Source: Gammaproteobacteria bacterium (GTDB lineage: Bacteria; Pseudomonadota; Gammaproteobacteria; Pseudomonadales; Ketobacteraceae). From it: a stretch of DNA of 64,000 bases. The notes beneath the pieces are model-generated. The model did not search any database. It was not told where the DNA came from and saw only the letters and a program-made list of their open reading frames with translations. Positions 3,663 through 51,522 of the stretch are shown here, one piece after another. The first letter of the stretch is position 1. Each line of letters opens with the position of its first letter. The stretch lies in contig JABLXQ010000009.1 of the NCBI GenBank assembly GCA_013178375.1, positions 82,347 through 146,346 of the forward strand. The letters run 5' to 3'. The translations under genes were made by a program, and so were the position numbers.

Positions 3663-5738
3663 GTGGGGCTGCGTTCGCAACTGCTCGTCGTTTCCCTCTG
3701 CACCCTGCTGCTGCCCTGGGCGGGCTGCCAGTACGTGCAGGAAATGGAAGGCGTGCTGCGGGAAAACCAGAGCCACGCCATGATCGGCCAGACCGCCCTG
3801 CTGGCCCGCATGCTGAACCAGACCGTTGACCTGCCGGAACCGGTGAAGGGCAACCTGTTCTACACCCCGGTGCGCTACCAGCCGGTGGAAATGGACGGCT
3901 ATGACGACGACTGGCAGGGCCACAGCGCCGACACACTGGAAAACGCAGCCGCCTCGATGGACCTGCGCCTGCAGAAGGGGCTGCACGGCAACGACCTGTA
4001 TTTGTTCCTGCAACTGCACGACACCCGCCTGATCTACCACCACCCGGGCCAGAGCTTCCGCCGCAGCGACCACATCCGCGTGCGCACCGGGTCCGGCAAG
4101 AACGAATTGCAGTGGCTGTTCTTCACCAGCGGTCCGGGTCAGTTGCAGGTCTATGAAAAACGCACCGGCTACAAGCGACTACGGGCACGCCCCGAGATCG
4201 ATGCCTGGTGGCAGGAGACCGGCACCGGCTACCAGCTGGAAATCCGCATTCCCCGCAAGCTGATCCGCACCCATCTGGACATCCAGGTTTATGACCGCGA
4301 TCCCTACGAGAAAAAAACCCGGCTGGCCCTGTCCACCCGGCGTGGCGGCGATGCCTCGGTGTGGGTCAAACCGCTGGGGGATCTGCTGCCAGCCCTGCAG
4401 CCCTGGCGCACCCACGACACCGACATCACCCTGGTGGACCCTCGCGGCTGGCCCCTGGCGCCCCAGAAAAACTGGCTCAACGACGACAGCCCGCTGGACA
4501 GCAACGTCACCCTCGACCAGGGCCTGATCGACAAGACCATCAGCCGCTTTTACCGCTTCCTGGTGGAACACCTGACGCCACGCTCCAGTCACAGCCTGTG
4601 GCCGCTGCCCACGCAGGCCCTCAGCCGACTGCAGCAACGCATTCCGCTGGAAAAGCTGGACACCGCCAGCAGCCGCAACGCCAGCGCCGACTGGTTCCGC
4701 TGGCCCAACACCGACCGCGCCGCCCTGCTGGTGGTGCAGCCGGTACGGCAGGAAGGGGAACTCAAGGGTTACCTGCTCTACACCCAGACCGGTGAAGCCC
4801 TGGTGAGCATGACCAACAATGCCCTGCGCCGGGTCACCCACCGGGCCCTGCTGGTGATGGCCATCGTCGTGGCCGTGCTGATCCTGTATGCCTCATTCCT
4901 GTCCTGGCGTATCCGCCAGCTGAAAACCCGGGCCGAGGCCGCCATCACCAGCGACGGCAAGGTCAACCAGTTCATTCCCTCAAAACAGGAAGACGAGATC
5001 GGCGACCTGTCCCGCAGCTACCACAACCTGCTGCAGCGGGTGCGCAACTACACCAGCTACCTGGAAACCCTGGGCGGCAAGCTGGCCCACGAACTGCGCA
5101 CGCCGCTGGCCATCGTCAAATCCTCGCTGGAACTGGCCCAGACCAGCCCCGGCAACAACGCCGAATACCTGCAGCGGGCCCAGGAGGGCAGCGAACGCCT
5201 GCGCCTGATCCTGTCTGCCATGAGCGAGGCCAGCCGGGTGGAACAGACCATCCAGCAGAGCGATTTCCAGACCTTCGACCTGCGCTCGCTGGTGCGGGAC
5301 ATGGCCCAGGCCTATGGCGACACTTACACCAGCCACCGCTTCCAGAGCGAACTGCCGGATGTGCCGGCCTGGGTGCGCGGCAGCCCGGAACTGATCGTGC
5401 AGATGCTGGACAAGCTGGCGGACAACGCCCGCGACTTCGCCCCGCCCGACAGCACCATCGAGATCGCCGTCAACAGCTTCAAGAACAAATGGTTGCTGAC
5501 GGTGAGCAACATAGGCCCCACCCTGCCTCCAAACCTGGAAGGGCAGCTGTTCGATTCCCTGGTGTCCCAGCGCGATGCCGACCACAAGGGCCAGTCGCCC
5601 CACCTGGGGTTGGGCCTGTATATCGTCCGCCTGATTGCCGCCGCCCATGAAGGCCAGGTGGAAGCCCACAACCGCGCCCAGGGCGACGGCGTGGTGTTCA
5701 CCGTCACCCTGCCTGCCGCCAGCGCGGAGCGGAACTGA
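3663..5738 (+). CDS. Sensor histidine kinase with a large (about 370 aa) periplasmic domain.
   Basis: GTG start 4 nt after the regulator stop. N-terminal TM LLVVSLCTLLLPW, second TM LLVMAIVVAVLILYASFLSW, H-box LAHELRTPLAIV, and ATP-lid/G-boxes DNARDF and LGLGLYIVRLIAAAHEG. Confidence 0.85.
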   Translation: MGLRSQLLVVSLCTLLLPWAGCQYVQEMEGVLRENQSHAMIGQTALLARMLNQTVDLPEPVKGNLFYTPVRYQPVEMDGYDDDWQGHSADTLENAAASMDLRLQKGLHGNDLYLFLQLHDTRLIYHHPGQSFRRSDHIRVRTGSGKNELQWLFFTSGPGQLQVYEKRTGYKRLRARPEIDAWWQETGTGYQLEIRIPRKLIRTHLDIQVYDRDPYEKKTRLALSTRRGGDASVWVKPLGDLLPALQPWRTHDTDITLVDPRGWPLAPQKNWLNDDSPLDSNVTLDQGLIDKTISRFYRFLVEHLTPRSSHSLWPLPTQALSRLQQRIPLEKLDTASSRNASADWFRWPNTDRAALLVVQPVRQEGELKGYLLYTQTGEALVSMTNNALRRVTHRALLVMAIVVAVLILYASFLSWRIRQLKTRAEAAITSDGKVNQFIPSKQEDEIGDLSRSYHNLLQRVRNYTSYLETLGGKLAHELRTPLAIVKSSLELAQTSPGNNAEYLQRAQEGSERLRLILSAMSEASRVEQTIQQSDFQTFDLRSLVRDMAQAYGDTYTSHRFQSELPDVPAWVRGSPELIVQMLDKLADNARDFAPPDSTIEIAVNSFKNKWLLTVSNIGPTLPPNLEGQLFDSLVSQRDADHKGQSPHLGLGLYIVRLIAAAHEGQVEAHNRAQGDGVVFTVTLPAASAERN

Positions 5739-6989: not shown

Positions 6990-9377
6990 ATGAATCAACG
7001 GATCGCTGCTTTTCTCGTCCGCTACCGGCTGTGGCTGTTCCTGGCCAGCCTGCTCATGGTGGGCGTGGCTGCCACCGGTTTCTCCCGTCTGGAGTACGTA
7101 GCCGACTACAAGAATTTCTTTGCACCGGACGATCCGCACCTGCGCGCGTTCGAGGATCTGCAGGACACCTTCAGCCGCGTGGACAACGTGGTGTTCGTGC
7201 TGGAACCGAAAAACGGCAAGGTGCTGTCGCCGGAGGGCATCCGGGCCCTGCAGTGGATCACCGAGGCCGGCTGGAAACTGCCGTTCTCGATCCGCATGGA
7301 CTCCCTCGCCAATTTCCAGCACACCCGCGCTGAAGAAGATGAGCTGATCGTGGAAGATCTGGTGCCGGCGGATTTCGACGGCAGCGCCGCCAGCCTCGAC
7401 CGCATCGCCCGCATCATCGCCAGCGAACCCACCGTGAGCAAACGCACGCTGACGCCGGATGGCGCACTCACCCTGGCCATGGTGACACTGGAACTGCCGC
7501 AAGATCAGACCACGGCGCTGGAACAGCTGATGGAAGGCCCCGGCGGCGTCAACGAGCTGGTCGCACAATTCCAGGCTGCCCACCCGGAGGTCACCGTCCA
7601 TGTCACCGGCGTGTCGGTGTCCAACTATTACCTGGGTATCGTCTCTGCCCGCGACATGAATGTTCTGATGCCCGTACTGCTGCTGGTGGTGCTGGTACTG
7701 GTGGGCGTCATGACGCGCTCGGTGGCCAACACTTTCCTTACCCTGTTCGTGGTGATCGTGTCCGTGGTCACCACCATCGGCTGCGTCGGCCTGCTGGGTT
7801 TTCCGCTCAACAATGTAAGTTCCGTGGCACCAATGGTGATCCTGACTCTGGCGGTGGCGGAATGCGTGCACCTGCTCTGCTATTACTCGATCAAGTTGCG
7901 GGAAGGTCACAGCAAGGAAGACGCCATGCGGCTGAGCCTGGAAAGCAACCTGCGCGCGATCTTCTTCACCAGCTTCACCACTGCGGTGGGCTTCATGGGC
8001 ATGAACACCATCGATTCGCCGCCATTCGTGCAGTTCGGCTACATCGCATCATTCGGCATCGTCATGGCCTATGTGTTCGGCCATACCATGCTGCCGCAAC
8101 TGGCGATCTGGCTGACCCGCGCCCACACCGGGCCGACCGAGCAGCATAGCGACACCGTGCACAGCGCCACCGCCGACTGGGTGATCGCCCATCCCCGGCG
8201 AGTGTTCTTCGGCACGCTGCTGGTGTCCTTTGCCATCAGCGTCAGCATGGTGCTGAACGACATGAACGACGACAACGTGGGTTATTTCGACCGGGACATG
8301 CCGCTGCGCGTCGCCATCGAACGGGCGGAACAGCACGGGATGGGTATGAACTTCATCGAATATTCACTGGATGCCGGCGAGAATTACGGCATCACCGATC
8401 CTGCCTATCTGGCCAAAGTGGAAAAATTCATCCAGTGGGCCCAGCAGCAACCGGAAGTGATCAACGTATCGTCCTTCACCAACGTGCTGAAGCGGCTGAA
8501 CCAGAACATGCACGGCGACGATCCCGCTTACTACATATTGCCGGAATCCCGCGAGCTGGCATCGCAGTATCTGCTGATGTACGAAATGTCGCTGCCAGTG
8601 GGCATGGACCTGAACAACCAGATTGACACCGGCAAATCGGCGCTGCGCATTACTCTCAGCACGCGCATGATGAAAGCGAAACAGAACCTGGCGCTGGAGC
8701 AACGCGTACAGGACTGGATGGCCGCCAATATTCCCGAACTGCAAACCCACGGCGCCAGCCCCACCATCATGTTTTCCCATATCGGCCAGAACAGCATTCG
8801 CAGCGTAATGACGGGCTCGCTATCCGCCATCGCCATCATCTGCCTGTGCATGATGTTTGCGTTTGGTTCCCTGCGGCTGGGCCTGATGGCACTGCTGCCG
8901 AATATTTTTCCGTCCACCATCGCGCTGGGCCTGTGGGGCCTGTTCGTGGGTGAAGTCAACATGGCGGTGGCGGTGATCTTCACCATTTCGTCCGGCATCA
9001 TCGTCGACGACACCATTCACCTGTTCTCGAAATTCTCCGACGGCCTGCGCAAGGGCCTGAACGTGGACGACAGCATCCGTTACTCATTCGCCCATGCCGG
9101 ACGTGGCGTGGTGATCACGACGGTAGTGCTGTGCGCCGGTTTCGCGATGCTGGGTTTCTCGGATTTCATCGTGAACAGAACCCTTGGCATTCTGGTGGCC
9201 GGCACCATCGCGATTGCGATCCTGTTCGATCTGCTGTTCCTGCCGTCGGTGCTGAAGGTGTTTCCCATCGACACCGCACGGTTTTACCAGCCTCCCGCAC
9301 ACCCGGCGACGAACGGTGCCGGCAGCGCGGAAGCTTACCGCCCGCAACCGGAAAAACTGGCGGAACCGACCGCCTGA
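6990..9377 (+). CDS. MMPL/RND-superfamily exporter (COG1033-type predicted exporter).
   Basis: 795 aa with two 6-TM bundles (VLMPVLLLVVLVLVGVM..., AIICLCMMFAFGSLRLGLMALLPNIF...) separated by large periplasmic loops. GGGGAG RBS. A hairpin terminator follows. Confidence 0.8.
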   Translation: MNQRIAAFLVRYRLWLFLASLLMVGVAATGFSRLEYVADYKNFFAPDDPHLRAFEDLQDTFSRVDNVVFVLEPKNGKVLSPEGIRALQWITEAGWKLPFSIRMDSLANFQHTRAEEDELIVEDLVPADFDGSAASLDRIARIIASEPTVSKRTLTPDGALTLAMVTLELPQDQTTALEQLMEGPGGVNELVAQFQAAHPEVTVHVTGVSVSNYYLGIVSARDMNVLMPVLLLVVLVLVGVMTRSVANTFLTLFVVIVSVVTTIGCVGLLGFPLNNVSSVAPMVILTLAVAECVHLLCYYSIKLREGHSKEDAMRLSLESNLRAIFFTSFTTAVGFMGMNTIDSPPFVQFGYIASFGIVMAYVFGHTMLPQLAIWLTRAHTGPTEQHSDTVHSATADWVIAHPRRVFFGTLLVSFAISVSMVLNDMNDDNVGYFDRDMPLRVAIERAEQHGMGMNFIEYSLDAGENYGITDPAYLAKVEKFIQWAQQQPEVINVSSFTNVLKRLNQNMHGDDPAYYILPESRELASQYLLMYEMSLPVGMDLNNQIDTGKSALRITLSTRMMKAKQNLALEQRVQDWMAANIPELQTHGASPTIMFSHIGQNSIRSVMTGSLSAIAIICLCMMFAFGSLRLGLMALLPNIFPSTIALGLWGLFVGEVNMAVAVIFTISSGIIVDDTIHLFSKFSDGLRKGLNVDDSIRYSFAHAGRGVVITTVVLCAGFAMLGFSDFIVNRTLGILVAGTIAIAILFDLLFLPSVLKVFPIDTARFYQPPAHPATNGAGSAEAYRPQPEKLAEPTA

Positions 9378-40276: not shown

Positions 40277-41482
40277 ATGCTGTCGCGTCATCGTTTGGCG
40301 AACCTGCTGTTCGCACTGTTATCCGTATTGCTTCCTGCCTCACTGGCCTTCGCGGCGGTGAGCGGCGTCACTGTGAGCCCGAAACAGGGCACGCTCGATG
40401 TTGCCCAGGGCGGCTCACTCACGTTGAAATGGGTGGTATCCACCAGCCCGGCCCACGCGGGCGGCGCATTTTCGGCCCAGGGCCTGCTCACTGATCCGGT
40501 CACCGGCGCCATCCTGCACACGGTGGCCACACCGTTCAACCGCACCGAAGGCTCCGGGCCTCTGCATTTCGACGAGGTGCTGGCCCTCACGCCAGCGCAA
40601 CTGCAGGAATGGGAGGCGAAAGGCATTTCGGCCGTGTCCTACCAGCGCGCATTCGGTTCCAGCGCCAGCGATACCGGCAACAAGACCGCCGCCGCCAGCG
40701 CCAACCTGATCATCACCCTGACCGGTGCCGCCGACCCCACCACGCCGCGCACCCCTGCCGCCGGCCTGTTCATCCACAAACTCAACCTGCGCTTTGCCAA
40801 CGCCCGCAACAAGAAGCGTTTTTCCCCCGGCAGTTCCCTGCGCGCCAAGCTGGACCTGCGCTATTCCGGCACCGGCCTGCTGCAGGGCACCTGGCAGATC
40901 GCCAGCGAAGTCGGCACCGGCGCCAAACCGGTGTTCACCACCCTGGCACAGGTGCGCCGGCAGCTGAAACTGGCGCAACGGGAATTTCTGGTGAGCCCGG
41001 AACTGCCCACCCAGGAACCGGGCAATTACCGGCTGCGGTTTTGCGTGCAGCCGCTGATCGTGGTGTCGGACCAGTTGCATATCGATGGGCAATGTCCGGA
41101 ACCGGAACTGATGGCCGAAATCGATTACCGCATCGACGGCAAAGATGCGCCCCGCACCACGGTGGAGATCGAACTGCTCACGGCCCTCTCGATGACGCTG
41201 ACGCCACAGACGCCGCTGAAATGGAACAAGCTGAAAGGCGCGGTGGCGTATCAGGTGCAGATTTTCAAATCCGGCAACGATGATGTGGAAGACGCGGTGG
41301 ACGGTGCAGAATTTGTGGTGCGCATGATCAGCAGCCCTGATCGCACCCAGCTGTATCTGTCGGAACTGGCCCGCCAGCAGCTGCAGCCAGGTCAGCAGTA
41401 CCGCTGGCGCGTCACGGCGCACGATGAAAACGCGCTGCTGATCGGCACCAGCGAATTCGCCGAATTTACCTATTTGCCCTGA
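40277..41482 (+). CDS. Secreted hypothetical protein.
   Basis: MLSRHRLANLLFALLSVLLPASLAFA is a signal peptide, followed by a beta-rich body. Its 3' end overlaps the convergent giant gene by 13 nt. Confidence 0.5.
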   Translation: MLSRHRLANLLFALLSVLLPASLAFAAVSGVTVSPKQGTLDVAQGGSLTLKWVVSTSPAHAGGAFSAQGLLTDPVTGAILHTVATPFNRTEGSGPLHFDEVLALTPAQLQEWEAKGISAVSYQRAFGSSASDTGNKTAAASANLIITLTGAADPTTPRTPAAGLFIHKLNLRFANARNKKRFSPGSSLRAKLDLRYSGTGLLQGTWQIASEVGTGAKPVFTTLAQVRRQLKLAQREFLVSPELPTQEPGNYRLRFCVQPLIVVSDQLHIDGQCPEPELMAEIDYRIDGKDAPRTTVEIELLTALSMTLTPQTPLKWNKLKGAVAYQVQIFKSGNDDVEDAVDGAEFVVRMISSPDRTQLYLSELARQQLQPGQQYRWRVTAHDENALLIGTSEFAEFTYLP

Positions 41483-44400
41483 GGCGGGCTGGTTTTGACC
41501 CGCGCATCCAGCGTGCGCAGCTGATCCAGCACCTGCTGCATCTTGTCGTGGGTGCGCAGGTCCAGTCCCAGTTTGCCATCCATGGTTTTCACCAGCGGGT
41601 AGATGCTGTTTTCCAGCGTGTCGGCCAGCGTTTTCAGCATCAGGTCGATGCCGGGGACAGGCTGGTTGATCACCTCCACTTCACAGCGCATCTGCGCTGC
41701 GGCTTCTGCGAAGGCTTGCAGCGCTTTTTCGATGCGTTTGCTTACCTGCTGCTGGTTCTGCTCCACGCTGTGCACCAACGTTTTCAAATGCTCGTTCTGT
41801 TGCGCAGTGCGCGAGTCGTTCAACGTTGCACTGACCTGGCCAACCGCTTCCCCCAGCGCATGCAGCTGCATCACCACGCGGGTGCCAACATCGGCCTCGT
41901 CGCCACCGGTTTGCTTCAGACGCTGGAATTCCTTTTTGATCGCCTGCCAGCGTTGCTGCTGCGCTTCCTGCATATTGCCACGCAATTCCGCCAGCTTGAG
42001 CAGGTTGGCCTCGGTGCCGGATGTGAGCAGCTGCGCTTCACCCAGATAGTGATCGTCGATCAGGGTGAGCAGCTCCGCGTCCGTCATCACTGCTGAAATC
42101 TTTTCCGCCATCTTGTTCATGTTGCGGTAACTGCCCTGCAGCTTGAACGGCGGCTCGGTGCGGAATTTGTCGTCCTGCGCGGCGGAGGCGATGTACTGCT
42201 GGTTCACTTTCAGCACCACCTGCTGGATGCGGAAAAGTTTCTGTAACGTCTCGATGATCTCGCGGGATTCAGCGGCGGAATAGGGATGTTTCAGCTCCAC
42301 TTCGTTGAATGCGCGACCGCGGGCGGCATCGACAAAGCAGTAGAAATCCGCCATGTCGCGGGTGGCCAGCGGCGCCAGCACCGGATTCGAGGTCATGCTG
42401 TTTTCGATGTAGCTGAGCGCGAAGACTTCCTCCATGCCACCGAGCACGTCACCCAGGTTGTAGATGTCGGCGCGGTTGGCCAGCATGTCGGGAATCTTGA
42501 ACAGCTCGCCGCTTTCGGTATACGGGTTGCCCGCCATGCCGACGCAGAATTTCTTGCCACGCATGTCGTAGGTTTTGGTGACACCTTTCCACACGCCTTC
42601 AATGCGGCGCGTGCCATCGCACAGGGAAATGAATTTCTGCAGGAACTCAGGATTGGTGTGCTGGATGTCATCCAGGTACAGCATCACGTTGTTGCCCATT
42701 TCCAGCGCCAGGTTGAGCTTTTCCAGCTCCTGCCGCGCGGTGGCGTTCGGTGCCTGCTGCGGATCAAGGGAATCCACCTGATGGCCCAGCGACGGGCAGT
42801 TGATCTTCATGAAGATCAGACCGAGACGGTGGGCGACATATTCCATCAGCGTGGTTTTGCCGTAACCCGGCGGCGAGATCAGCATCAGCAGACCCATCAG
42901 ATCGGTGCGCCGGTTCTCGCCCACGGTGCCCATCTGCTTGGCTAGGTTGGCGCCGATGATGGGCAGGTAGGATTCGCTGATCAGCTTGTTGCGCACGAAG
43001 GACGAGAGCGGGCGCGGCTTGAACTGGTCCAGCCGCAGCCGGCGTTTTTCCTGCTCGATGATGCGCTGGCGGGTTTCCAGAAACTGCAGATAGGTCGGTA
43101 CGGTGTGATCGGCATGCTGCTGCAGGCGCAGCAGAAATTCATCCAGCCGGATGGGCAGATTGCCCTGCTGGATAGTGGCGTGGGACGACAATAATTTTTC
43201 CACGCTGAACTGCAGGTTGAGTTCGCGCGGCTGCCAGCGCAGGCGGGTATCCACCAGCAGGCGGGCAGCGGCTTCTTCGGCATAAGGTGTCAAGGTGTTA
43301 TGTGTCGACGCGCTGTCGGCCTGCCTGTGCAGCCACGCCTGCACCCAGCCCAGCACGAAGCGCCAGGCGGCACCGGGCTGTTCCTGCAGATTTTTCACCG
43401 TTTCATCAAAAGTAGCGGCGGCGTTGGCGGTATTGAGCGCCATGCGCAGCTGCTCCACCAGCGTGAGCGCCGCGCGGGTGATCACAAATTCCGCCTGTGG
43501 CCGCGCCAGTTCCCGCAGCAGGTACTGGGCGGCGCGGGCGCTTTGGGCAGAATCCGTTTCGATCTGCTGCTGGTGCAGAAAATCCCGCAGCTGCTGCTGG
43601 ATTTCATTCTGCAACTGCTGCAGCGCGTTGGCGGAACCAAACAGGTTGAGCATGTGCAGCGCCGATTGCGCCCGTGCCGGCCAGATGCCGGTGTGCGCAT
43701 CACGGCAATAGCGGCTCCAGAACAGCGTGGCCAGCGCGCGGGTGGGCGGATCGAAGCGCAACAGGTCGGCCATTTCATACAGCGGCAGCAGCTGGTCCAG
43801 AATCAGCGTGGCGTCATGATCGTGAATGCCCCGTTCATAACCTTCGCGATAGCGCGGTTCGGCATAGCGGCGCACGCAGTTCAACAAACCGTCGGGCTGT
43901 TGCCGTGCCTGCCGCAACTGGTCCAGTGAAAGCTGTTCGGTGCCACTTTCGGCATGGCGCAGCACAGAATAGGCCAGATATTCCGCCCGGCTCACCTGCT
44001 GGTTTTCCGACGGCAGCGACATGGACCAGAACGCCTGCGTGCCGGCGAGCGTTTCCGCATCCAGCGCTTCATAAAAATCCGTGCCGGTGAGATGAAAATA
44101 CAGCGCGCCATCGCGGGGCAACAGAGTCAGATCCAGTTCCTGCTGATTGACGCTGAAACGGTGCAACGGCCCCAACTTCACCACATTGCCGTCGGCTTCG
44201 TAAATATCGGCCTTGTCGCGCAGGCCGCGCACCGACTGATCCTTCAGCGCCTTCAGTCGCGCTTCAATATCATCGGCCTTGACGCTGTCATCCAGTCCGC
44301 GCAGTTGCTGCGCCAGCTGCCGCAGTTTTTCCACCAGCGGATCGGAACTGAAAAACGTATTGTGCTCGTCCTCGTTGCGGAACTTGCCGCTGCGACGCTT

Positions 44401-46770
44401 GATGCCGTCGATGATGCGGTTGGCGGCATCCAGCAGCGTCTGCGCCCGGCGCTGGCGCTCATCCAGCAGCTGCTGCTTGTGGGTTTCGAAACTTTCAAAA
44501 ATTTCCTCGCGCTTGCCTAGGATGTCAGCGAGGAACTCGTCGTGTTCACCGAACTGGCTTTCCAGCTCCTGCAGCTGGGTCATGATGCGCGACAGCTGTT
44601 CGTCGCAGCGCTCCGGTGTGTTCGACAGCGCCAGTCCGTTGGTAACGCTTTGCGCCAGCAACTTGAACTGGGCGGAAAATTGCGCCAGCGCCTCGGCAGA
44701 ACCCAGATTTTTCACCTGGTTCTGCGCCCGCGCCCGCACCTGGTTCAGTTGTGAATACAGCGCGGAAATGGCGTCGATGATACGGGTGCGGGTGTTGGCT
44801 TCGGCCGAGGTGATGCCGCTGATGGTTTCGGTGAGCAGATCCAGGCCCTGACTCAGCTGATCCAGCTTCTGCAACGGCGCTTCCAGTTCGGCGCGAATGG
44901 CAATCGCAGCAATCTGTTTGTCCAGCTCACCCAGATCGCGGTACAGCGGCTTCAGCGCTTCCTCTTTTGCCAGAAACTCCACCGTGCGCTGCGACAGCTG
45001 CAGCCGCGCCTTGTCCAGCTGCTGATCCAGTTCCGTAATTCTGTTCTTGTCGATATAGCGGTATTCACCGATGGTCAGCAGATGGCCGCGCATCTTGCGA
45101 ATGTCCGCCAGACCCTGCACGAACGGTTGTGGCGTGGTCCAGCTGTCGGGCTGGATCTGTTTCAGCAGGGCGCGGGTTTGTGCGTCGGCTTTATCCAGCG
45201 CCTCGCCGGAACTGCGGCGGATGGCCGCCACCTTTTCATATTCATCCAGGATCAGCTCGCCAGTTTCGACGATCTGGTGCAGCAGTGCAGCAGTCTCCTG
45301 CATCTCCGTCGCGCCGATCCAGTGATACTGATCGAACAGGCGCCCCGCGTATTTGCACAGCTCGTGATAATGCGTGGCCTGGGCATCGGGTTTGCGAACC
45401 AGCTGGCACACACCAAACAGATCGGAAATACCCCGCACCAGATCCGCGTTACCGATGCGGCCGAAAAAAGTCCGCGACTGCTGTGTCTGGCTGGCGTGCA
45501 CGTCGGAATAGAATGGCGTCTGCCACAGCTGCATCGGATGCACGCGGGTAGGTTCGCTTTCCGCCTGGAACATCAGCATGCGGCCGTCTTCAAAACGGGC
45601 ACAGCCGTGGGCATACAGCGGCGTGCGCAACTGCCGCTCGATCAGATTGTACGGGTACAGCGCCACCAGCCCGTTCACTGGCTCGTACAGCAGATACAGC
45701 ACATCCTCGCCGTTGGGGGATTTGATGGCGCGCTTGAAACGCAGGCCGGCATTGGGCTCATCGAACGTCTTGTAATCGCCGGTCTGCAGATAAAAGCCGC
45801 CTGGAAACAGAATGCCGTGATTGTCAGGCAGCTGCACGCAACTATCACCGATGGCGTCGATCCGCACCACGGATTCGTTGAGGCGGTTGAACACCAGATA
45901 ACGCCACTGCGGTTCCTGGTAGGGGCGGATTTTCAGCAGGATCAGCTGGCCCAGCTCCGCGAAAAAAAATTCCGCGTCGTCGAGGGACTGGTTGGGATCG
46001 GCCACCGGATCGGAATACACGCCCTTGCCGGTGGCGGTGTTGTTTTCCACCTTGATGGTGAGATCGCCGCCAATGGTGTCGACGAAAATCGTGTCGAGAA
46101 TATTCAGGTGGGGATGGCGGCCTTCCACGATCAGCTCCCGCGCCACCGGCCGCCATTCGAAATCCTGCGGCGATGGCAGCTGGATGTCGCGTTCGCCACG
46201 ATTGTCGATGTATTCAATACGCTGGCCATCGGCTGAAACGGACCAGCGGAACACGCGCTGGTCCGCCGCCCGCTCGCCGATCTGGAAACTGGCCAGCAGT
46301 TTGCCGTCCCACACCACCAGCAGGGTGAGCACGGTATTTTTGTAATAGGTGTACAGCTCGTTGAAATCGGACTGGAAGCGGGCGTCCGCCAGAAAGGTAT
46401 TCTCGATCGGAACGGCATCCATTTCCGGATTGCCGTCCCGCTCTACCAGTTTGTAGACGGAGAACACGTCGGCCACCTGGGTGGATTTTTTCAGGCCGAG
46501 AAACACGTTGTAGCCGAACAGCAGGCTGTCGCCCACGCGTACGATATCGCGCGCCACACAATTGTTTTCGGTGCGCACGCGGGTGCGGCCAATCACCTGC
46601 ATTTCGGTGGAGCCGAATTCCTCCAGCCGCTGTTTGTTAAGACCAGTGGCCAGCGCCTCCAGGCGATTGCCCTGCTCCAGCAGACGCTTGCGGATAACCT
46701 CATACGCCGAACCCTGGGTGACCGCCTGTTCCACCTGCTGCTCGCCGACAGCCGCCGGTGCCTTGTCCAT
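41470..46770 (-). CDS. Giant (about 1767 aa) protein with a C-proximal AAA+ ATPase domain and a coiled-coil tail.
   Basis: Walker A LMLISPPGYGKTTLMEY, Walker B MLYLDDIQHTNPE and sensor-1-like FCVGMAGNPYTE lie near residues 1250-1400. About 1200 aa N-terminal of them carry no motif I recognise. The C-terminal 300 aa are Q/E/L-rich coiled coil. Its start is either the ATG at 46770 or a TTG at 46797. Confidence 0.75.
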   Translation of the reverse strand: MDKAPAAVGEQQVEQAVTQGSAYEVIRKRLLEQGNRLEALATGLNKQRLEEFGSTEMQVIGRTRVRTENNCVARDIVRVGDSLLFGYNVFLGLKKSTQVADVFSVYKLVERDGNPEMDAVPIENTFLADARFQSDFNELYTYYKNTVLTLLVVWDGKLLASFQIGERAADQRVFRWSVSADGQRIEYIDNRGERDIQLPSPQDFEWRPVARELIVEGRHPHLNILDTIFVDTIGGDLTIKVENNTATGKGVYSDPVADPNQSLDDAEFFFAELGQLILLKIRPYQEPQWRYLVFNRLNESVVRIDAIGDSCVQLPDNHGILFPGGFYLQTGDYKTFDEPNAGLRFKRAIKSPNGEDVLYLLYEPVNGLVALYPYNLIERQLRTPLYAHGCARFEDGRMLMFQAESEPTRVHPMQLWQTPFYSDVHASQTQQSRTFFGRIGNADLVRGISDLFGVCQLVRKPDAQATHYHELCKYAGRLFDQYHWIGATEMQETAALLHQIVETGELILDEYEKVAAIRRSSGEALDKADAQTRALLKQIQPDSWTTPQPFVQGLADIRKMRGHLLTIGEYRYIDKNRITELDQQLDKARLQLSQRTVEFLAKEEALKPLYRDLGELDKQIAAIAIRAELEAPLQKLDQLSQGLDLLTETISGITSAEANTRTRIIDAISALYSQLNQVRARAQNQVKNLGSAEALAQFSAQFKLLAQSVTNGLALSNTPERCDEQLSRIMTQLQELESQFGEHDEFLADILGKREEIFESFETHKQQLLDERQRRAQTLLDAANRIIDGIKRRSGKFRNEDEHNTFFSSDPLVEKLRQLAQQLRGLDDSVKADDIEARLKALKDQSVRGLRDKADIYEADGNVVKLGPLHRFSVNQQELDLTLLPRDGALYFHLTGTDFYEALDAETLAGTQAFWSMSLPSENQQVSRAEYLAYSVLRHAESGTEQLSLDQLRQARQQPDGLLNCVRRYAEPRYREGYERGIHDHDATLILDQLLPLYEMADLLRFDPPTRALATLFWSRYCRDAHTGIWPARAQSALHMLNLFGSANALQQLQNEIQQQLRDFLHQQQIETDSAQSARAAQYLLRELARPQAEFVITRAALTLVEQLRMALNTANAAATFDETVKNLQEQPGAAWRFVLGWVQAWLHRQADSASTHNTLTPYAEEAAARLLVDTRLRWQPRELNLQFSVEKLLSSHATIQQGNLPIRLDEFLLRLQQHADHTVPTYLQFLETRQRIIEQEKRRLRLDQFKPRPLSSFVRNKLISESYLPIIGANLAKQMGTVGENRRTDLMGLLMLISPPGYGKTTLMEYVAHRLGLIFMKINCPSLGHQVDSLDPQQAPNATARQELEKLNLALEMGNNVMLYLDDIQHTNPEFLQKFISLCDGTRRIEGVWKGVTKTYDMRGKKFCVGMAGNPYTESGELFKIPDMLANRADIYNLGDVLGGMEEVFALSYIENSMTSNPVLAPLATRDMADFYCFVDAARGRAFNEVELKHPYSAAESREIIETLQKLFRIQQVVLKVNQQYIASAAQDDKFRTEPPFKLQGSYRNMNKMAEKISAVMTDAELLTLIDDHYLGEAQLLTSGTEANLLKLAELRGNMQEAQQQRWQAIKKEFQRLKQTGGDEADVGTRVVMQLHALGEAVGQVSATLNDSRTAQQNEHLKTLVHSVEQNQQQVSKRIEKALQAFAEAAAQMRCEVEVINQPVPGIDLMLKTLADTLENSIYPLVKTMDGKLGLDLRTHDKMQQVLDQLRTLDARVKTSPPQGK

Positions 46771-46904
46771 TACCGCCACGCGATTCTTCCTCTGCAAACG
46801 ATTCTTGCTCTGACAGCGTCGTGGAAATATGCCGGTGTCCGGCTAACGCGATCGTTCGCGCCGCCAGACCTTCCGGTGTCATGTTACGGGCTCATGCTGC
46901 AGGG

Positions 46905-48995
46905 TCAGGCCTGCTGTTCTTCCGCCGGTTTGACCTCGACAGGTTTGGTCTCGGCAGCACTGCCCAGATTCAAAAGCCGGTTGAACGCCTGATTGATCAT
47001 CGGGCTTTTCGCGGCAATGCCATTCACCGCGTTGCCGATGGACAGCGCCTTGGCGAAGTTCGCGAAGTAATCGCCTTCGCCACCGACGATTTCGATCTTC
47101 GCTTTTTGCAGCGCGGCGCCCAGCACTTCGGCCTGCTCTTTGGCGATGTCCTTGTTGGCGGCAATCGTCGCCATGACTTCCTCGAACGCCAGCTCCAGCC
47201 GCATGCGCAATTCCTCGAACTCGCGCGCTGCCGGGCTCATGTTGTTCATGGCGCTGAATTTCTCGGTCAGGCCATCGGCTTCGGCGCGGCCCTTCTCGCG
47301 AATCACGTCCGCCGACGCAATGCCTTTCTCCCGTTCCGCCAGCGCCACTGCCTTGCCAATGGCTTCGTCGCCCGATGCCTGCGCCGCCAGCTTCTCCTTC
47401 AGCGCGCGGGCTTCCGCCAGACCGATCTGCTCGTCGCCACGGGCCTTCGCCGACAGTTTTTCTTCCAGCACCTTGGCATCTGCCAGGCCCTGTTTCTCGT
47501 TGGCTTCCGCCTGCGCCTCGATCACGCGCGCCTTTGCCAGACCCAATGCCTGGTCTGCATTGGCTTTCGCCACGCCTTCTTTTTCCAGCGCTGCCGCCTG
47601 GGCTTCCTTCACCCGCGCGTCCGCCAGGCCCGGTGCCGCCTGCTCCGCCTGCATGCCTTCGGCCCGCTTGATCTGGGCCTCGGCCTGCTTCGCCGCCGCT
47701 TCCAATTCCGCCTGGGCGATGGTGTTGATTTCCTTCGCCTTGTGAATGGCCTTGCGCTCTTCCGCCTCGGCTTTCTTCACCTGCTTCACCAAATCCTCTT
47801 CAGCGATGGCCTGGGCATCCAGAATCTTCGCCTGCTTGGAACGCTCGGCTTCGGAAATGGTGCGCACATCCTTGATCCGCTCTTCTTCCTCGGCCACTTT
47901 CTTGTCTACCGCGATGCGCTCGGAAATGGTGTTGGCGATGATCTTACGCTCCTCTTCCAGCGCTTTTTCCTTGTCGATGGTCTGCAGCTCCACCTCGCGT
48001 TCGCGATTGACGATTTCCAGCTGGCGCGCCTTCTCCACTTTTTCGTGCTCAATCGCCACCACACGCTCGCGGTTTTTCTCGGCGATCTCGATCTGGCGCT
48101 GTTTATTTTGTTCAGACACCGCCAGCGCTTCCTCGGTTTCGATGCGGGCCTGCTCCGCCTTGCGCCGCTCCTCTTCTTTCACCTTGCTGGTTTCCGCTTC
48201 TTCGCGGGCACGAATCGATTCCACCTCGCGCTTCTGCCGCGCCTCGGCATCGGCCTGCTGTTTTTCCAGTTCCAGCATGGCTTCGCGGGTCGACACGTTC
48301 TTGCGGGTGATTTCCAGTTCCTCGTCGCGCTCCAGCCGGTTGGTTTCGATATTCTGCTGGGCGGTAATCTGGGTGATCTTGCGGATGCCTTCGGAATCCA
48401 GAATGTTGTTGGGATCGAGGGCGGATTTCGGGGTCTGCTCCAGATAATCGATGGCCACATCTTCCAGCACATAGCCGTTGAGATCGTCGCCAATCACTTC
48501 AATGATTTTGTCGCGGAACTGGATACGGTTTTCAAACAGCTCCAGGAATTCCATTTTCTTGCCGACGGTTTTTAATGCCTCGGAGAATTTCGCGTTGAAC
48601 AGCTCACTCACCGCATCCTTGCTCGACGCCCGCTCCACGCCCACCGCCTTCGCCACCTTCAGCACATCCTCGGTGGTTTCATTCACGCGCAGATAGAACG
48701 CCACCGTGATGTCCGCCCGCAGATTATCCTTGCAGATCAGACCGTCCTTGCCGCTGCGATCGATCTCCAGGGTGATGACGGAAATCTTCATCACTTCCTT
48801 CTTGAAAATCACAGGCCAGACGATAGCGCCGGTAAAACTCACCTTCGGCACCGATGCCAGCGTGTTGACGATCAGCGCCTGCCCCTGTTCCACTTTGATA
48901 TAGAACGCCTTCACTGCCAGCAGCAACAACACCAGCACCGCAAAAGAACCGCCCACCACGGTGATCCAGAAAAAAATCCAGCCCGAATCGAACAT
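46905..48995 (-). CDS. yqiK: Flotillin / SPFH (band 7) family protein, YqiK-like.
   Basis: AGGAGAG RBS. N-terminal TM IFFWITVVGGSFAVLVLLLLAV, then an SPFH domain, then about 350 aa of EA/AK-rich coiled coil. Confidence 0.85.
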   Translation of the reverse strand: MFDSGWIFFWITVVGGSFAVLVLLLLAVKAFYIKVEQGQALIVNTLASVPKVSFTGAIVWPVIFKKEVMKISVITLEIDRSGKDGLICKDNLRADITVAFYLRVNETTEDVLKVAKAVGVERASSKDAVSELFNAKFSEALKTVGKKMEFLELFENRIQFRDKIIEVIGDDLNGYVLEDVAIDYLEQTPKSALDPNNILDSEGIRKITQITAQQNIETNRLERDEELEITRKNVSTREAMLELEKQQADAEARQKREVESIRAREEAETSKVKEEERRKAEQARIETEEALAVSEQNKQRQIEIAEKNRERVVAIEHEKVEKARQLEIVNREREVELQTIDKEKALEEERKIIANTISERIAVDKKVAEEEERIKDVRTISEAERSKQAKILDAQAIAEEDLVKQVKKAEAEERKAIHKAKEINTIAQAELEAAAKQAEAQIKRAEGMQAEQAAPGLADARVKEAQAAALEKEGVAKANADQALGLAKARVIEAQAEANEKQGLADAKVLEEKLSAKARGDEQIGLAEARALKEKLAAQASGDEAIGKAVALAEREKGIASADVIREKGRAEADGLTEKFSAMNNMSPAAREFEELRMRLELAFEEVMATIAANKDIAKEQAEVLGAALQKAKIEIVGGEGDYFANFAKALSIGNAVNGIAAKSPMINQAFNRLLNLGSAAETKPVEVKPAEEQQA

Positions 48996-49012: not shown

Positions 49013-49075
49013 GAAAGCTCTGCCTATTAAAAGCTCTGCCTGTTACAAGACCAGCCTGTTATAAAGCCTGTTCAG
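49013..49075 (-). repeat. Short direct repeats in the yqiJ-flotillin intercistronic spacer.
   Basis: AAAGCTCTGCCT(A/G)TTA appears twice (49013..49028 and 49029..49044), followed by CAGCCTGTTA and AAGCCTGTTCA. The GCCTGTT core occurs four times in 60 nt. Confidence 0.6.
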
Positions 49076-49683
49076 CTCTTGAATTCATGTTCCGGCACGA
49101 CCCAGAACAGGTTCGTGTCCTTGCGATGCTCGATCAGCACCACCTTGTCGCCCCGCTGCAAGCCCTTGCCGGCTTCGGCGCGCACTTTCAGGATCAGCTC
49201 GGCGCCATCGATCACCGTGGTCGCCTCGCCAAACGTTTCGTCCACCCGGCTGGAGCGCACGGTGCAGAGCGCACCAATCAGCACCTTGTCCGGCGCCGAC
49301 GCGTTCAACGCCCGGAACAGGGGGCGCAGCGGTTTCACCACCTGCGCGCTCACCAGTACAGACACCGCCAGCGACACCGGAATGGCCAGCGTGCCGGTCA
49401 CATAGTTGAGCCAGTTGCCCGGCTCGCCCACGAACAGCAGCGCCACGATCAGGTAGCAGGTGGCCCAGGAAAACAGCGCCACCAGCCCCAGTACCATCGA
49501 CAGCGGAACCCCCTTCAGGCCCAGCGTGGTCATCAGGCCCGACAGCGCTTCGAATTCGAAATCAACGTCGTCGAATCCCGCCAGCCCCACTGCCGCCAGC
49601 AACAGGTAGAGGAACGCAAAAGCGCCAAAAATCGTAAAGATAACCGTGGGATAACTCGAAATGTTCTGCAGGAACGCTTCCAT
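49072..49683 (-). CDS. yqiJ: YqiJ/NfeD-like membrane protein (flotillin partner).
   Basis: N-terminal TM bundle, then a C-terminal soluble beta domain (VVLIEHRKDTNLFWVVP). Conserved yqiJ-yqiK order. Confidence 0.7.
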   Translation of the reverse strand: MEAFLQNISSYPTVIFTIFGAFAFLYLLLAAVGLAGFDDVDFEFEALSGLMTTLGLKGVPLSMVLGLVALFSWATCYLIVALLFVGEPGNWLNYVTGTLAIPVSLAVSVLVSAQVVKPLRPLFRALNASAPDKVLIGALCTVRSSRVDETFGEATTVIDGAELILKVRAEAGKGLQRGDKVVLIEHRKDTNLFWVVPEHEFKS

Positions 49684-49698
49684 ACACAGCCCCCGGCC

Positions 49699-49916
49699 AT
49701 TGACATATCATGTCAATCTAGTAACAACGACATATTATGTCAATGGCAAAAATCCATACTTGTTGTAGTGGACAGCCCGGCGCTATTTTGTATTGAATGC
49801 CGGCTACCGTTTCAGTCGTGCAGGCACTATAGCCAAGCCATACGGACATAACAAAAAATTGTTTGACATATTATGTCGTGCGGCCTAGCCTTTCCCGTAC
49901 GACATAATATGTCAAC
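49699..49916. promoter_or_regulatory. Four palindromic operator-like sites (consensus TTGACAT-N3-ATGTCAA) in the divergent promoter region.
   Basis: Site 1 at 49699..49717 is ATTGACAT-atc-ATGTCAAT (8-3-8, perfect). Site 2 at 49726..49744 is aacGACAT-att-ATGTCAAT. Site 3 at 49862..49880 is TTTGACAT-att-ATGTCgtg. Site 4 at 49898..49916 is tacGACAT-aat-ATGTCAAc. One pair flanks each divergent promoter. Confidence 0.7.
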
Positions 49917-49943
49917 CACTTCTACCCGGCGCAGGAGACCTCA

Positions 49944-50351
49944 ATGCACCGATTGCAGGAACTGACCTACACCCTGAGCGACCTCAACTATGAAGGCCAC
50001 ACCTTCAACTGCCTGCCCATTGGCGGCGCGCAGAATGTGTTGCAGATACTGGTGTCGGATCTGGACGAAATGCCAATCTATGTCACTGTCACCGACACCC
50101 AGATGCTGTGTATCACCTATCTGTGCCGGCGTGACGAGATCCGCACCGACAAGCGTGATGAACTCAACCGGTCCATGCTGGAAATGAACGTTGCCGTGCC
50201 ACTCAGCTCGTTCGCGCTGATCGAGGACTACTATGTAATATTCGGCGCACTTTCCACCACCAGCAGCATCAATGATATCTGCCGGGAACTGGTTACCCTG
50301 GCCGCCAACGCCTACGACGCGCTGGAAGCCATCGAAGAATTTCTGGTTTGA
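49944..50351 (+). CDS. yjfI: YjfI-like protein (DUF2170).
   Basis: 135 aa, acidic, soluble. It sits immediately upstream of a PspA/IM30-family gene as in the enterobacterial yjfIJ pair. Assignment is by context and size. Confidence 0.45.
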   Translation: MHRLQELTYTLSDLNYEGHTFNCLPIGGAQNVLQILVSDLDEMPIYVTVTDTQMLCITYLCRRDEIRTDKRDELNRSMLEMNVAVPLSSFALIEDYYVIFGALSTTSSINDICRELVTLAANAYDALEAIEEFLV

Positions 50352-50384: not shown

Positions 50385-51080
50385 ATGAGCAGCGTATTCG
50401 ACAAACTCTGGACCGCCCTGCGCGGCGGCGCACGGGAAATCGGTGACGCCATCGTCGATGCCAACGGCATCCGCATTTTCGAGCAGGAAATCAAGGACGC
50501 CACCGACAACATCGCCACCGCGAAAAGAAGCCTCACCGAAGTGATGGCCAGAAAGATGCAGGCTGTGCGCAAGGTGGCGGAACTGGGCGACGCCATTACC
50601 CAGAATGAACGCTTTGCCACCCAGGCCCTTGAGCAGAACAACGAGGCACTGGCACTGGATGTGGCCGGCAAGATCGCAGGACTGGAGAACGACCGCAACG
50701 AGCAGGCTGCCATCGTCACCCGGCTGGATCACCAGATTGAACAGCTTAAGGCGCACATCAAGAAAGCCGAGAAGCTGATCGCCGATCACGAGCGCGAACT
50801 GGCCATTGTGCGCACCACAGAAAGCGTGCAGAAGGCCACCGAACAAGTGGTGGAAAACGTGGCCGCCAACAACTCCTCCCTGAATTCCGCCCGCGATTCC
50901 CTGGAGCGCATCAAGAAGCGGCAGGAACTGAAACAGGACCAGATGGCCGCCGGCGAACTGCTGGATAGTGAATTGGGCGACCAGGGCCTGGACGCCAAGC
51001 TGGAGGCCGCCGGCATCAAGGGAACAAAAGCCGATGCGGCTGCCATTCTGGCACGGCTGAAGGCGGCCAAACCTTCCTGA
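50385..51080 (+). CDS. yjfJ: PspA/IM30 family protein (YjfJ-like).
   Basis: 231 aa, all coiled coil. MSSVFDKLWTALRGGAREIGDAIVDANGIRIFEQEIKDA is typical of the N-terminus of PspA/YjfJ/Vipp1 (ESCRT-III superfamily). Confidence 0.7.
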   Translation: MSSVFDKLWTALRGGAREIGDAIVDANGIRIFEQEIKDATDNIATAKRSLTEVMARKMQAVRKVAELGDAITQNERFATQALEQNNEALALDVAGKIAGLENDRNEQAAIVTRLDHQIEQLKAHIKKAEKLIADHERELAIVRTTESVQKATEQVVENVAANNSSLNSARDSLERIKKRQELKQDQMAAGELLDSELGDQGLDAKLEAAGIKGTKADAAAILARLKAAKPS

Positions 51081-51207: not shown

Positions 51208-51522
51208 ATGAAGAATTCCCGCTGGCAACAAGAACAGAACGCCATCAAGGCCGTGCAGGTGGCGTTCGACATTTCCGCCGAGGCCCAGAAGGTCATCAAG
51301 CAGGAAGCCCTGTCCAACAACCTCAATCCACCGGACCAGATCCGCAAGATTCTCGGCCTGTCCTACAACAAGAAACCGGTACGTCCGCGCCTGACCGTAA
51401 CGCTGAAAGACGAGGATTTCGAAGTGCTGGCGGCCCGCTACGGGCTTGACCCGAAGGACCAGGCCGCCATCAAGGAAAAAGTGGTGGAAGAGCTGGTGGG
51501 CTTCGCCCGCAAACCGCGCTGA
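51208..51522 (+). CDS. Small protein with two tandem ribbon-helix-helix-like units (putative DNA-binding).
   Basis: Unit 1: KAVQVAF (beta), DISAEAQKVIKQEAL, PPDQIRKILG. Unit 2: PRLTVTL (beta), KDEDFEVLAARYG, DQAAIKEKVVEEL. Each matches the RHH beta-alpha-alpha pattern. Confidence 0.4.
   Translation: MKNSRWQQEQNAIKAVQVAFDISAEAQKVIKQEALSNNLNPPDQIRKILGLSYNKKPVRPRLTVTLKDEDFEVLAARYGLDPKDQAAIKEKVVEELVGFARKPR

Follow-up and report, generated by a model that had tools for sequence, protein, structure and literature searches.

The subject of this study is the control region of a membrane module in a 64-kb stretch of DNA from an uncultured gammaproteobacterium of the Ketobacteraceae, related closely to Ketobacter; this stretch in its entirety is referred to as the window. 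At 49699-49916 of the window, four copies of the palindrome GACAT-N3-ATGTC are located between two divergent transcription units, of which the one on the minus strand encodes a YqiJ-like protein, a flotillin-like protein and a giant ATPase and the one on the plus strand a DUF2170 protein, a PspA-like protein and a protein of 104 residues with a predicted tandem ribbon-helix-helix (RHH) architecture. In the interpretation that we regard as probable, the sites are operators of this 104-residue protein, which would repress both divergent sigma-70 promoters and, concomitantly, its own synthesis, with its binding, the sign of regulation and the stoichiometry being deduced from sequences and models. 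A description of this operator, or of the regulator in a flotillin-type cluster, was not found in the literature searched, and both would belong to a known kind, that of RHH autorepressors with operators over sigma-70 promoters. Clusters combining DUF2170, PspA-like, flotillin-like and giant ATPase genes are widespread in Proteobacteria and, as the bac cluster of Pseudomonas aeruginosa, tied to biofilm formation and virulence. The operator GACAT-A-W-T-ATGTC together with its candidate repressor thus offers an experimental entry point to a membrane module that is poorly understood.

Operator sites and predicted promoters

Re-reading of the sequence over 49500-50100 bears out the four palindromes proposed in the first-pass annotation at their respective coordinates, as well as the perfect 8-3-8 symmetry that it had assigned to the first of them. 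Site 1 (49699..49717) reads ATTGACAT-ATC-ATGTCAAT with its core GACATATCATGTC at 49702-49714, site 2 (49726..49744) reads AACGACAT-ATT-ATGTCAAT with the core GACATATTATGTC at 49729-49741, site 3 (49862..49880) reads TTTGACAT-ATT-ATGTCGTG with the same core GACATATTATGTC at 49865-49877 and site 4 (49898..49916) reads TACGACAT-AAT-ATGTCAAC with the core GACATAATATGTC at 49901-49913. The annotation had also described ATGTCAA as the half-site of all four copies, of which the inner part holds: the element common to sites 1-4 is the 13-bp core GACAT-N3-ATGTC, whereas the outer TT/AA is found in some half-sites only, as illustrated by site 3, whose left half is TTGACAT and whose right half is ATGTCGT. 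With centres at 49708, 49735, 49871 and 49907, the cores are spaced by 27, 136 and 36 bp. Sites 1 and 2 are located 16-61 bp upstream of the minus-strand ATG at 49683 and sites 3 and 4 28-82 bp upstream of the plus-strand ATG at 49944, which agrees with the distances previously given for both pairs. The window contains four copies of the core, all of them at 49699-49916, compared to an expectation of 0.08 from shuffling; none of 100 shuffles of the window attains this number, and a search of the window with GACATAWTATGTC at two mismatches retrieves no extra site.

Both pairs coincide with predicted sigma-70 promoters. In the promoter of the YqiJ-like/flotillin-like/ATPase unit (49715..49743, minus strand), TTGACA (49743-49738) is followed after 17 bp by TAGATT (49720-49715), and this arrangement scores 10/12 in a promoter scan. 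The promoter of the DUF2170/PspA-like/RHH unit (49863..49891, plus strand), with TTGACA at 49863-49868 and TAGCCT at 49886-49891, likewise 17 bp apart, was read from the sequence, since its weak -10 box left it unflagged by the scan. TAGATT matches the -10 consensus at 4/6 and TAGCCT at 3/6 positions. On the minus strand, the -35 hexamer is contained within site 2 and site 1 spans the region from -10 to about +7; on the plus strand, the -35 hexamer is contained within site 3 and site 4 spans about +3 to +16 of the predicted start. A similar organization is found in relatives, where every listed locus with a TTGACAT-type site carries TTGACA inside one site (cTTGACAT...) and a -10-like TAnnnT box 16-18 bp downstream (CTATAGT, TATACT, TACAAT or CTAATCT). 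The second site is located 15 bp upstream and abuts the first in 14 loci, it lies 24-39 bp downstream over the predicted start in 26 loci, and a single site is found in 23 loci.

The operators thus overlap the -35, -10 or +1 regions of the predicted promoters, as expected for an autorepressor, and the gene of the proposed regulator is found inside the operon under these operators, as third gene in six-gene clusters and as last gene in the plus-strand unit of the window. Since the sites occupy polymerase contact points of otherwise good promoters, we infer repression. Where the first-pass annotation had left open a dimeric repressor or activator, the layout over -35 and +1 thus favours the repressor, and it speaks less for an activator; a classical dimer is also not what would be expected, since a single-chain RHH protein would place two monomers on each palindrome.

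Conservation of the motif and its association with the 104-residue protein

The conservation of the motif was investigated in 80 genomic loci (1.11 Mb in total, with about 8-10 kb of flank per locus), which were fetched via homologues of the 104-residue protein that are 44-98% identical. These loci contain 150 perfect cores, and each of them is located upstream of the yjfI homologue, at a distance of at most 450 bp; from base composition, 0.6 would be expected. At least one perfect core is present in 75 of the 76 loci whose sequence covers the upstream region, and the remaining locus (L052) carries a copy with one mismatch. The resulting consensus is GACAT-A-W-T-ATGTC, with a weak preference for TT/AA outside the core. 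Even the most divergent homologue that was checked, from Marinobacter fuscus (47% identical), retains a perfect site.

The arrangement of the genes in these loci is informative with respect to the extent of the regulon. In the commonest layout, genes encoding DUF2170, PspA-like, 104-residue, YqiJ-like, flotillin-like and ATPase proteins are co-directional, with 1-3 sites at the front only, as found in Betaproteobacteria (Variovorax, Massilia, Duganella, Azoarcus, Chitinimonas), Kangiellaceae and Gynuella. A Ketobacteraceae-like group differs in that the genes for the YqiJ-like, flotillin-like and ATPase proteins are inverted, resulting in a divergent unit with 2+2 sites in all 11 of 11 loci. 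The cluster of Marinobacter fuscus is also divergent and contains one perfect and one degenerate site. The proposal that both divergent operons belong to one regulon is thus well supported, since the six genes usually sit behind one operator region and, where the cluster is split, each unit bears a pair of its own.

In an alignment of the intergenic region of 10 split-cluster loci, the mean column identity is 39% and the invariant columns correspond almost solely to the four cores and to C-T-A...T at the two -10 positions, where CTAG..T of the minus-strand box is conserved and C-T-A...T is near-invariant on the plus strand. The alignment displays what is, at the level of sequence, a clear phylogenetic footprint. 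It strengthens the view that the palindromes are protein-binding operators and not bare promoter boxes, since the ATGTC half and entire sites devoid of TTGACA are invariant within DNA that is otherwise 39% identical per column. Between the operator pairs, most split-cluster loci also share a conserved block (consensus cTATAGCAAg; 49826-49836 in the window, CACTATAGCCA), which on the minus strand reads as a -10-like TATAGT and which the promoter scan pairs with TTGTTA at 49854-49849, 17 bp away. This block may constitute an extra promoter located further upstream, from which transcription would proceed through sites 2 and 1.

The link between motif and gene is illustrated by clusters that differ in their gene content. 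The 104-residue protein is the sole predicted DNA-binding protein in the cluster. Sites with up to one mismatch are absent within about 9 kb of Escherichia coli yjfIJKLMC, which does not contain the gene, and the same holds within about 9 kb of three Pseudomonas bac clusters, which were fetched with the partial P. aeruginosa BacA sequence from PDB 8q8o, and of a GSP-synthetase-type cluster (L094), all of which also do not contain it. Conversely, the motif accompanies the gene into a second operon type. In locus L151 (129-5152), genes for a DUF350 protein and a SpeE-like protein with seven transmembrane segments are followed by two sites 36 bp apart and by genes encoding DUF2170, PspA, a DUF4178-like protein and a 111-residue homologue of the 104-residue protein (hidden Markov model E = 6e-41). 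The loci L140 (685-5690) and L170 (3525-8591) show the same architecture with an extra site before the first gene, which encodes a lipoprotein, and their sequence stops before the last gene. The lipoprotein, DUF350 and SpeE-like genes of L140 and L170 are thereby candidate members of the regulon. In a passage on the spermine-synthase-type CesT/Tir-PspA operon, Ravi et al. 2024 mention "a ribbon-helix-helix domain transcription factor" as product of its final gene (PMC11237479), and going by this passage the factor and the homologue in L151 probably belong to the same protein family. Since the motif follows the gene into a second operon type and is missing from clusters without it, the 104-residue protein is likely the best candidate for the regulator, which supports the suggestion in the first-pass annotation that the product of 51208..51522 might fulfil this role.

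A metagenome scan with the 14-base motif version CTTGACATNNTATGTC returned at least 80 loci. Most of the matches listed are lone sites without cluster genes, as chance predicts, but all six listed loci with two cores within 40 bp of each other are either yjfI/PspA clusters or contain a look-alike promoter (L135). Since lone matches are common in metagenomes, a single core is thus not diagnostic and only paired sites are. A screen of a plasmid collection for yjfI clusters retrieved only distant copies from E. coli and Rhizobium.

Three contigs from these searches show features of their own. In L135, two perfect cores 28 bp apart (8922-8962) display the usual layout, with cTTGACAT... and the second site before the ribosome-binding site of a gene that starts at 8978. 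The beginning of its product resembles, by eye, a YidC/Oxa1-type membrane insertase, and PspA-cluster genes were not found on the contig. Judged from this promoter, the gene may be a further member of the regulon. A PspA-like reading frame in L146 is not preceded by a DUF2170 gene; about 100 bp upstream of this frame, a perfect 21-bp palindrome is located (CCTTGACATATTATGTCAAGG, 4688-4706). L111, an AT-rich contig without cluster genes, contains near-identical promoter-like segments of about 70 bp at 2292-2392 and 5447-5547, 3.1 kb apart (AAATAAAACTTGACATTTTATGTCTTTTATAGTATATATAC...), which probably constitute a repeated strong promoter with a chance match to the motif, possibly of phage origin.

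Predicted fold of the candidate regulator and proposed mechanism

The AlphaFold2 model of the 104-residue protein, which was generated from 106 homologues, consists of a strand and two helices, a linker and a second unit of a strand and two helices (mean predicted local distance difference test score (pLDDT) 70, predicted template modelling score (pTM) 0.55). Secondary structure assigned with DSSP comprises strands at residues 16-18 and 64-66 and helices at 24-36, 41-49, 68-78 and 85-101, with pLDDT values of 73-85 in these blocks. In the model, the two strands form the two-stranded antiparallel sheet that, together with two helices per strand, characterizes the RHH fold. The model can be superimposed on solved RHH structures and it contains two RHH units in one chain, arranged as an intramolecular pseudo-dimer. 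The strand residues Q17, A19 and D21 and the stretch R59-P60-R61-L62-T63 are invariant in the 106 homologues, which parallels the invariant core of the operator.

Several points weigh against the assignment of the sites to a repressor of this fold. With the scores given above, the fold model is only moderately confident, and its Foldseek matches are non-significant, though AvtR and TraY rank first. Neither the whole protein nor its halves match a curated RHH profile in Pfam and NCBIfam even at E <= 10, a profile search of PDB sequences with the protein returned no hit, and the comparison of the N-terminal with the C-terminal half by hhalign, at a probability of 1%, did not detect an internal duplication. 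The promoters are defined by consensus matches alone, with a weak -10 box (TAGCCT) on the plus strand. The centre-to-centre spacings of 15, 27-31 and 35-39 bp do not share a single helical phase, and for this reason cooperativity is not deducible from them. Finally, the five negative controls are few and phylogenetically distant and, since the loci were gathered through the gene, its co-occurrence with the motif in part reflects shared ancestry, both of which limit the strength of the argument from co-variation.

The proposed mechanism of repression by the 104-residue protein would proceed as follows. At each predicted promoter, one operator encloses TTGACA of the -35 box together with the beginning of the spacer, and the second covers the -10/+1 region. 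Since the bound protein would occupy both regions, RNA polymerase would be kept off the promoters. As the monomer is predicted to be a pseudo-dimer with one two-stranded beta-sheet, each monomer would probably read one asymmetric GACAT half-site, and two monomers would be placed head to head on each palindrome, with the centres of the half-sites 8 bp apart. This spacing is comparable to that in MetJ, where adjacent dimers bind 8-bp met boxes. Since the regulator would be made from one of the repressed promoters, the module would be under negative feedback, and the outcome would be one autoregulated regulon for a membrane module of PspA-like, DUF2170, flotillin-like and AAA+ ATPase proteins.

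The release of such a repressor is a matter of speculation. Because the 104-residue protein is too small to contain a ligand domain, a protein partner would appear the most plausible route of induction. The N-terminal tail (residues 1-15, 51208-51252 in the window) is predicted to be disordered, with pLDDT values below 50, and it carries an invariant tryptophan (W6) and near-invariant alanines at positions 12 and 15 in the 106 homologues. The tail may thus be a handle for protein interactions. In a scenario to which we assign a low probability, the 104-residue protein would bind DNA as part of a partner-switch responsive to membrane damage: once freed from or recruited to the membrane, the CesT-like chaperone DUF2170/YjfI or the PspA-like protein would capture the tail with W6, which would remove the repressor from its operators and induce the repair module. 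If true, the PspA-PspF circuit would have a counterpart based on a repressor.

An improbable alternative is the view that the sites are real operators bound by a transcription factor encoded elsewhere, such as a dimer of the TetR, MerR or Xre type, and that the 104-residue protein serves a different function. Perfect palindromes of 13-17 bp are also typical of helix-turn-helix dimers, the sequence profiles give the 104-residue protein no DNA-binding call, and our scans covered about 8-10 kb of flank around the loci, which leaves room for an unlinked regulator; the motif that tracks the gene across two operon types instead points to the 104-residue protein itself.

We consider it similarly doubtful, and if anything a little more so, that the 104-residue protein binds the sites as activator or dual regulator, for example by recruiting polymerase to promoters with weak -10 boxes. 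The boxes of both promoters in the window (TAGCCT with 3/6 and TAGATT with 4/6 matches) would be in line with this possibility, and some RHH proteins, such as AmrZ and relatives of NikR, can activate. However, the location of one site on the -35 hexamer and of the other over +1 or abutting upstream would result in a clash with polymerase and, in Betaproteobacteria, the same layout is found on near-consensus promoters (TTGACA-17-TATACT/TATAGT/TACAAT), which should need no activator.

A control region without regulator, in which strong -35 boxes (TTGACAT) coincide with chance or structural palindromes or with RNA hairpins in 5' leaders, is highly improbable: although TTGACA is the -35 consensus of sigma-70 and the transcripts would include sites 1 and 4, each of which could fold into a 5-bp hairpin, sites 2 and 3 at -35 are not transcribed, no variation between taxa is seen in the ATGTC half or in entire sites devoid of TTGACA (cGACATAATATGTC, gGACATATTATGTC) although their flanks vary, the excess of cores over expectation is confined to the yjfI promoter region and, among the metagenome matches listed, paired cores occur only at yjfI/PspA clusters or at the look-alike promoter of L135.

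A domain homologous to the 104-residue protein is also found in a different context. Alphaproteobacterial (Rickettsiales-like) proteins of 350-620 residues contain it at their C-terminus (about E = 1e-10; P0249-P0301, P0302-P0415), preceded by a beta-rich N-terminal domain and a Pro/Ala/Lys-rich linker, and they are always encoded after dapA-smpB (L216, L217, L218, gene from 9001). No Pfam domain was assigned to these proteins and GACAT-N3-ATGTC was not found nearby. Their location after dapA-smpB led us to reject an assignment as DUF4178-like proteins of PspA operons, and they speak neither for nor against the proposed binding.

Comparison with known systems and composition of the cluster

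The proposed autorepression by a small protein with a DNA-reading head formed by a beta-sheet resembles that by CopG of pMV158, Arc and Mnt of phage P22 and MetJ. These small RHH autorepressors recognize short symmetric operators that overlap the -35/-10 region of the promoter of their own operon, which in case of CopG is a 13-bp pseudo-symmetric element over the -35 box, and in regulators of the CopG/Arc/MetJ type several RHH units bind side by side on adjacent half-sites that are 7-11 bp apart. In contrast to these proteins, in which each chain contains a single RHH unit and DNA is bound by a dimer of two chains, the 104-residue protein would combine two unlike units in a single chain. Its operator GACAT-N3-ATGTC also differs from theirs, and the RHH models of Pfam do not match the protein. 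By eye, the second repeat RPRLTVTL of the protein resembles the strand KRLTITL of CopG.

Closer in architecture are RHH proteins that carry both units in one chain. TraY and DndE define a class of tandem RHH proteins acting as monomeric pseudo-dimers (PMC10853773). Single-chain Arc is, according to its PDB title, a tandem RHH pseudo-dimer as well. Two RHH motifs in one chain are also present in AvtR. The 104-residue protein resembles TraY of the F plasmid, DndE and AvtR in architecture only, since neither an internal duplication nor a match to PDB sequences was detected. The functions of these proteins are also distinct, with TraY acting at oriT in conjugation, DndE in DNA modification and AvtR as regulator of an archaeal virus, and neither TraY nor DndE is known to repress the operon of a membrane-stress module. 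If the model is correct, our study would add, to the small number of single-chain tandem RHH regulators described so far, a family that Pfam does not model.

The genes of the cluster are homologous to bacABCDEF of P. aeruginosa (PA3732-PA3727), where they follow the same order (DUF2170, PspA-like, 23-kDa membrane protein, flotillin-like, giant ATPase). In contrast to the window, the Pseudomonas bac clusters contain neither the 104-residue gene nor a GACAT-N3-ATGTC site. For the bac operon, a sigma-54 promoter was proposed from sequence (PMC2587700, PMC10948618). A promoter of this kind was rejected for the window, where the intergenic region (49684-49943) contains no match to the -24/-12 element TGGCAC-N5-TTGC at up to two mismatches. 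The comparison shows that, as far as sites and predicted promoters are concerned, homologous clusters in Pseudomonas have apparently exchanged their control region.

Control from within the operon has also been described for the bac cluster, where BacB-F over-accumulate 6-13 fold in a transposon mutant of bacA, indicating negative control (PMC10948618). The partner-switch scenario would explain this derepression upon loss of BacA, with an N-terminal extension of BacA maybe supplying DNA binding in this case. Upstream of bacA, Pseudomonas loci contain two copies of a near-palindrome (TTACATGTGA) that are 22 bp apart and flank a TTGAAA box (L092 8952-8983, L090 8734-8765). These repeats may serve as an operator of another kind, bound by another regulator. 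Relative to the start in the crystal structure, the bacA frame itself continues upstream for about 59 codons (MQRKSSAHYQRVFRQRLREQGLVKKEVWILPENAAALAGIERMLRR...; 9001-9180 of the P. aeruginosa-like contig L092; proteins P0142, P0152, P0153). The 206-position BacA model of NCBIfam spans this extension (331 bits, positions 1-199), and the YjfI protein of the window matches only positions 91-202. The extension, which seems to comprise a strand and a helix, might be a DNA-binding part behind the negative control reported for BacA; a Pfam search with it returned no match.

As in the psp system of E. coli, a PspA-family protein is encoded in an envelope-stress operon that would control itself and has a divergent promoter region. 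The psp system combines a sigma-54 promoter with PspF, an activator of the AAA+ type, which is counteracted by PspA (PMC11237479). Unlike in psp, the promoters in the window are sigma-70-like, and a small repressor is predicted as regulator. Neither a scan of ten neighbouring proteins nor the gene calls for identical contigs revealed an enhancer-binding protein of the PspF type. The RHH gene occupies a single sentence in the relevant passage of Ravi et al. 2024 (PMC11237479), which concerns the spermine-synthase-type operon only, and neither the flotillin/AAA+ type nor a binding site is given there.

The minus-strand unit of the window starts with a 203-residue protein in the YqiJ/BacC position (49072..49683), which was assigned by synteny with all loci and the Pseudomonas bac clusters and for which a Pfam search returned no match. 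It is followed by a 696-residue flotillin-like protein in the BacD position (46905..48995, minus strand; synteny and a weak match to FloT of NCBIfam under the cut-off) and by a 1775-residue ATPase with DUF3686, DUF7902 and AAA+ domains in the BacE position (41470..46797, minus strand; Pfam and synteny). The first gene of the plus-strand unit encodes the YjfI/BacA-like DUF2170 protein (49944..50351; PF09938, E = 1e-38; BacA in PDB 8q8o, E = 8e-8), whose fold is described in the literature as that of a CesT-type chaperone. The second encodes the YjfJ/BacB-like protein of the PspA/IM30 family (50385..51080, plus strand; PF04012, E = 3e-37), and the third and last the predicted tandem RHH protein of 104 residues (51208..51522, plus strand), after which comes a convergent CorA gene.
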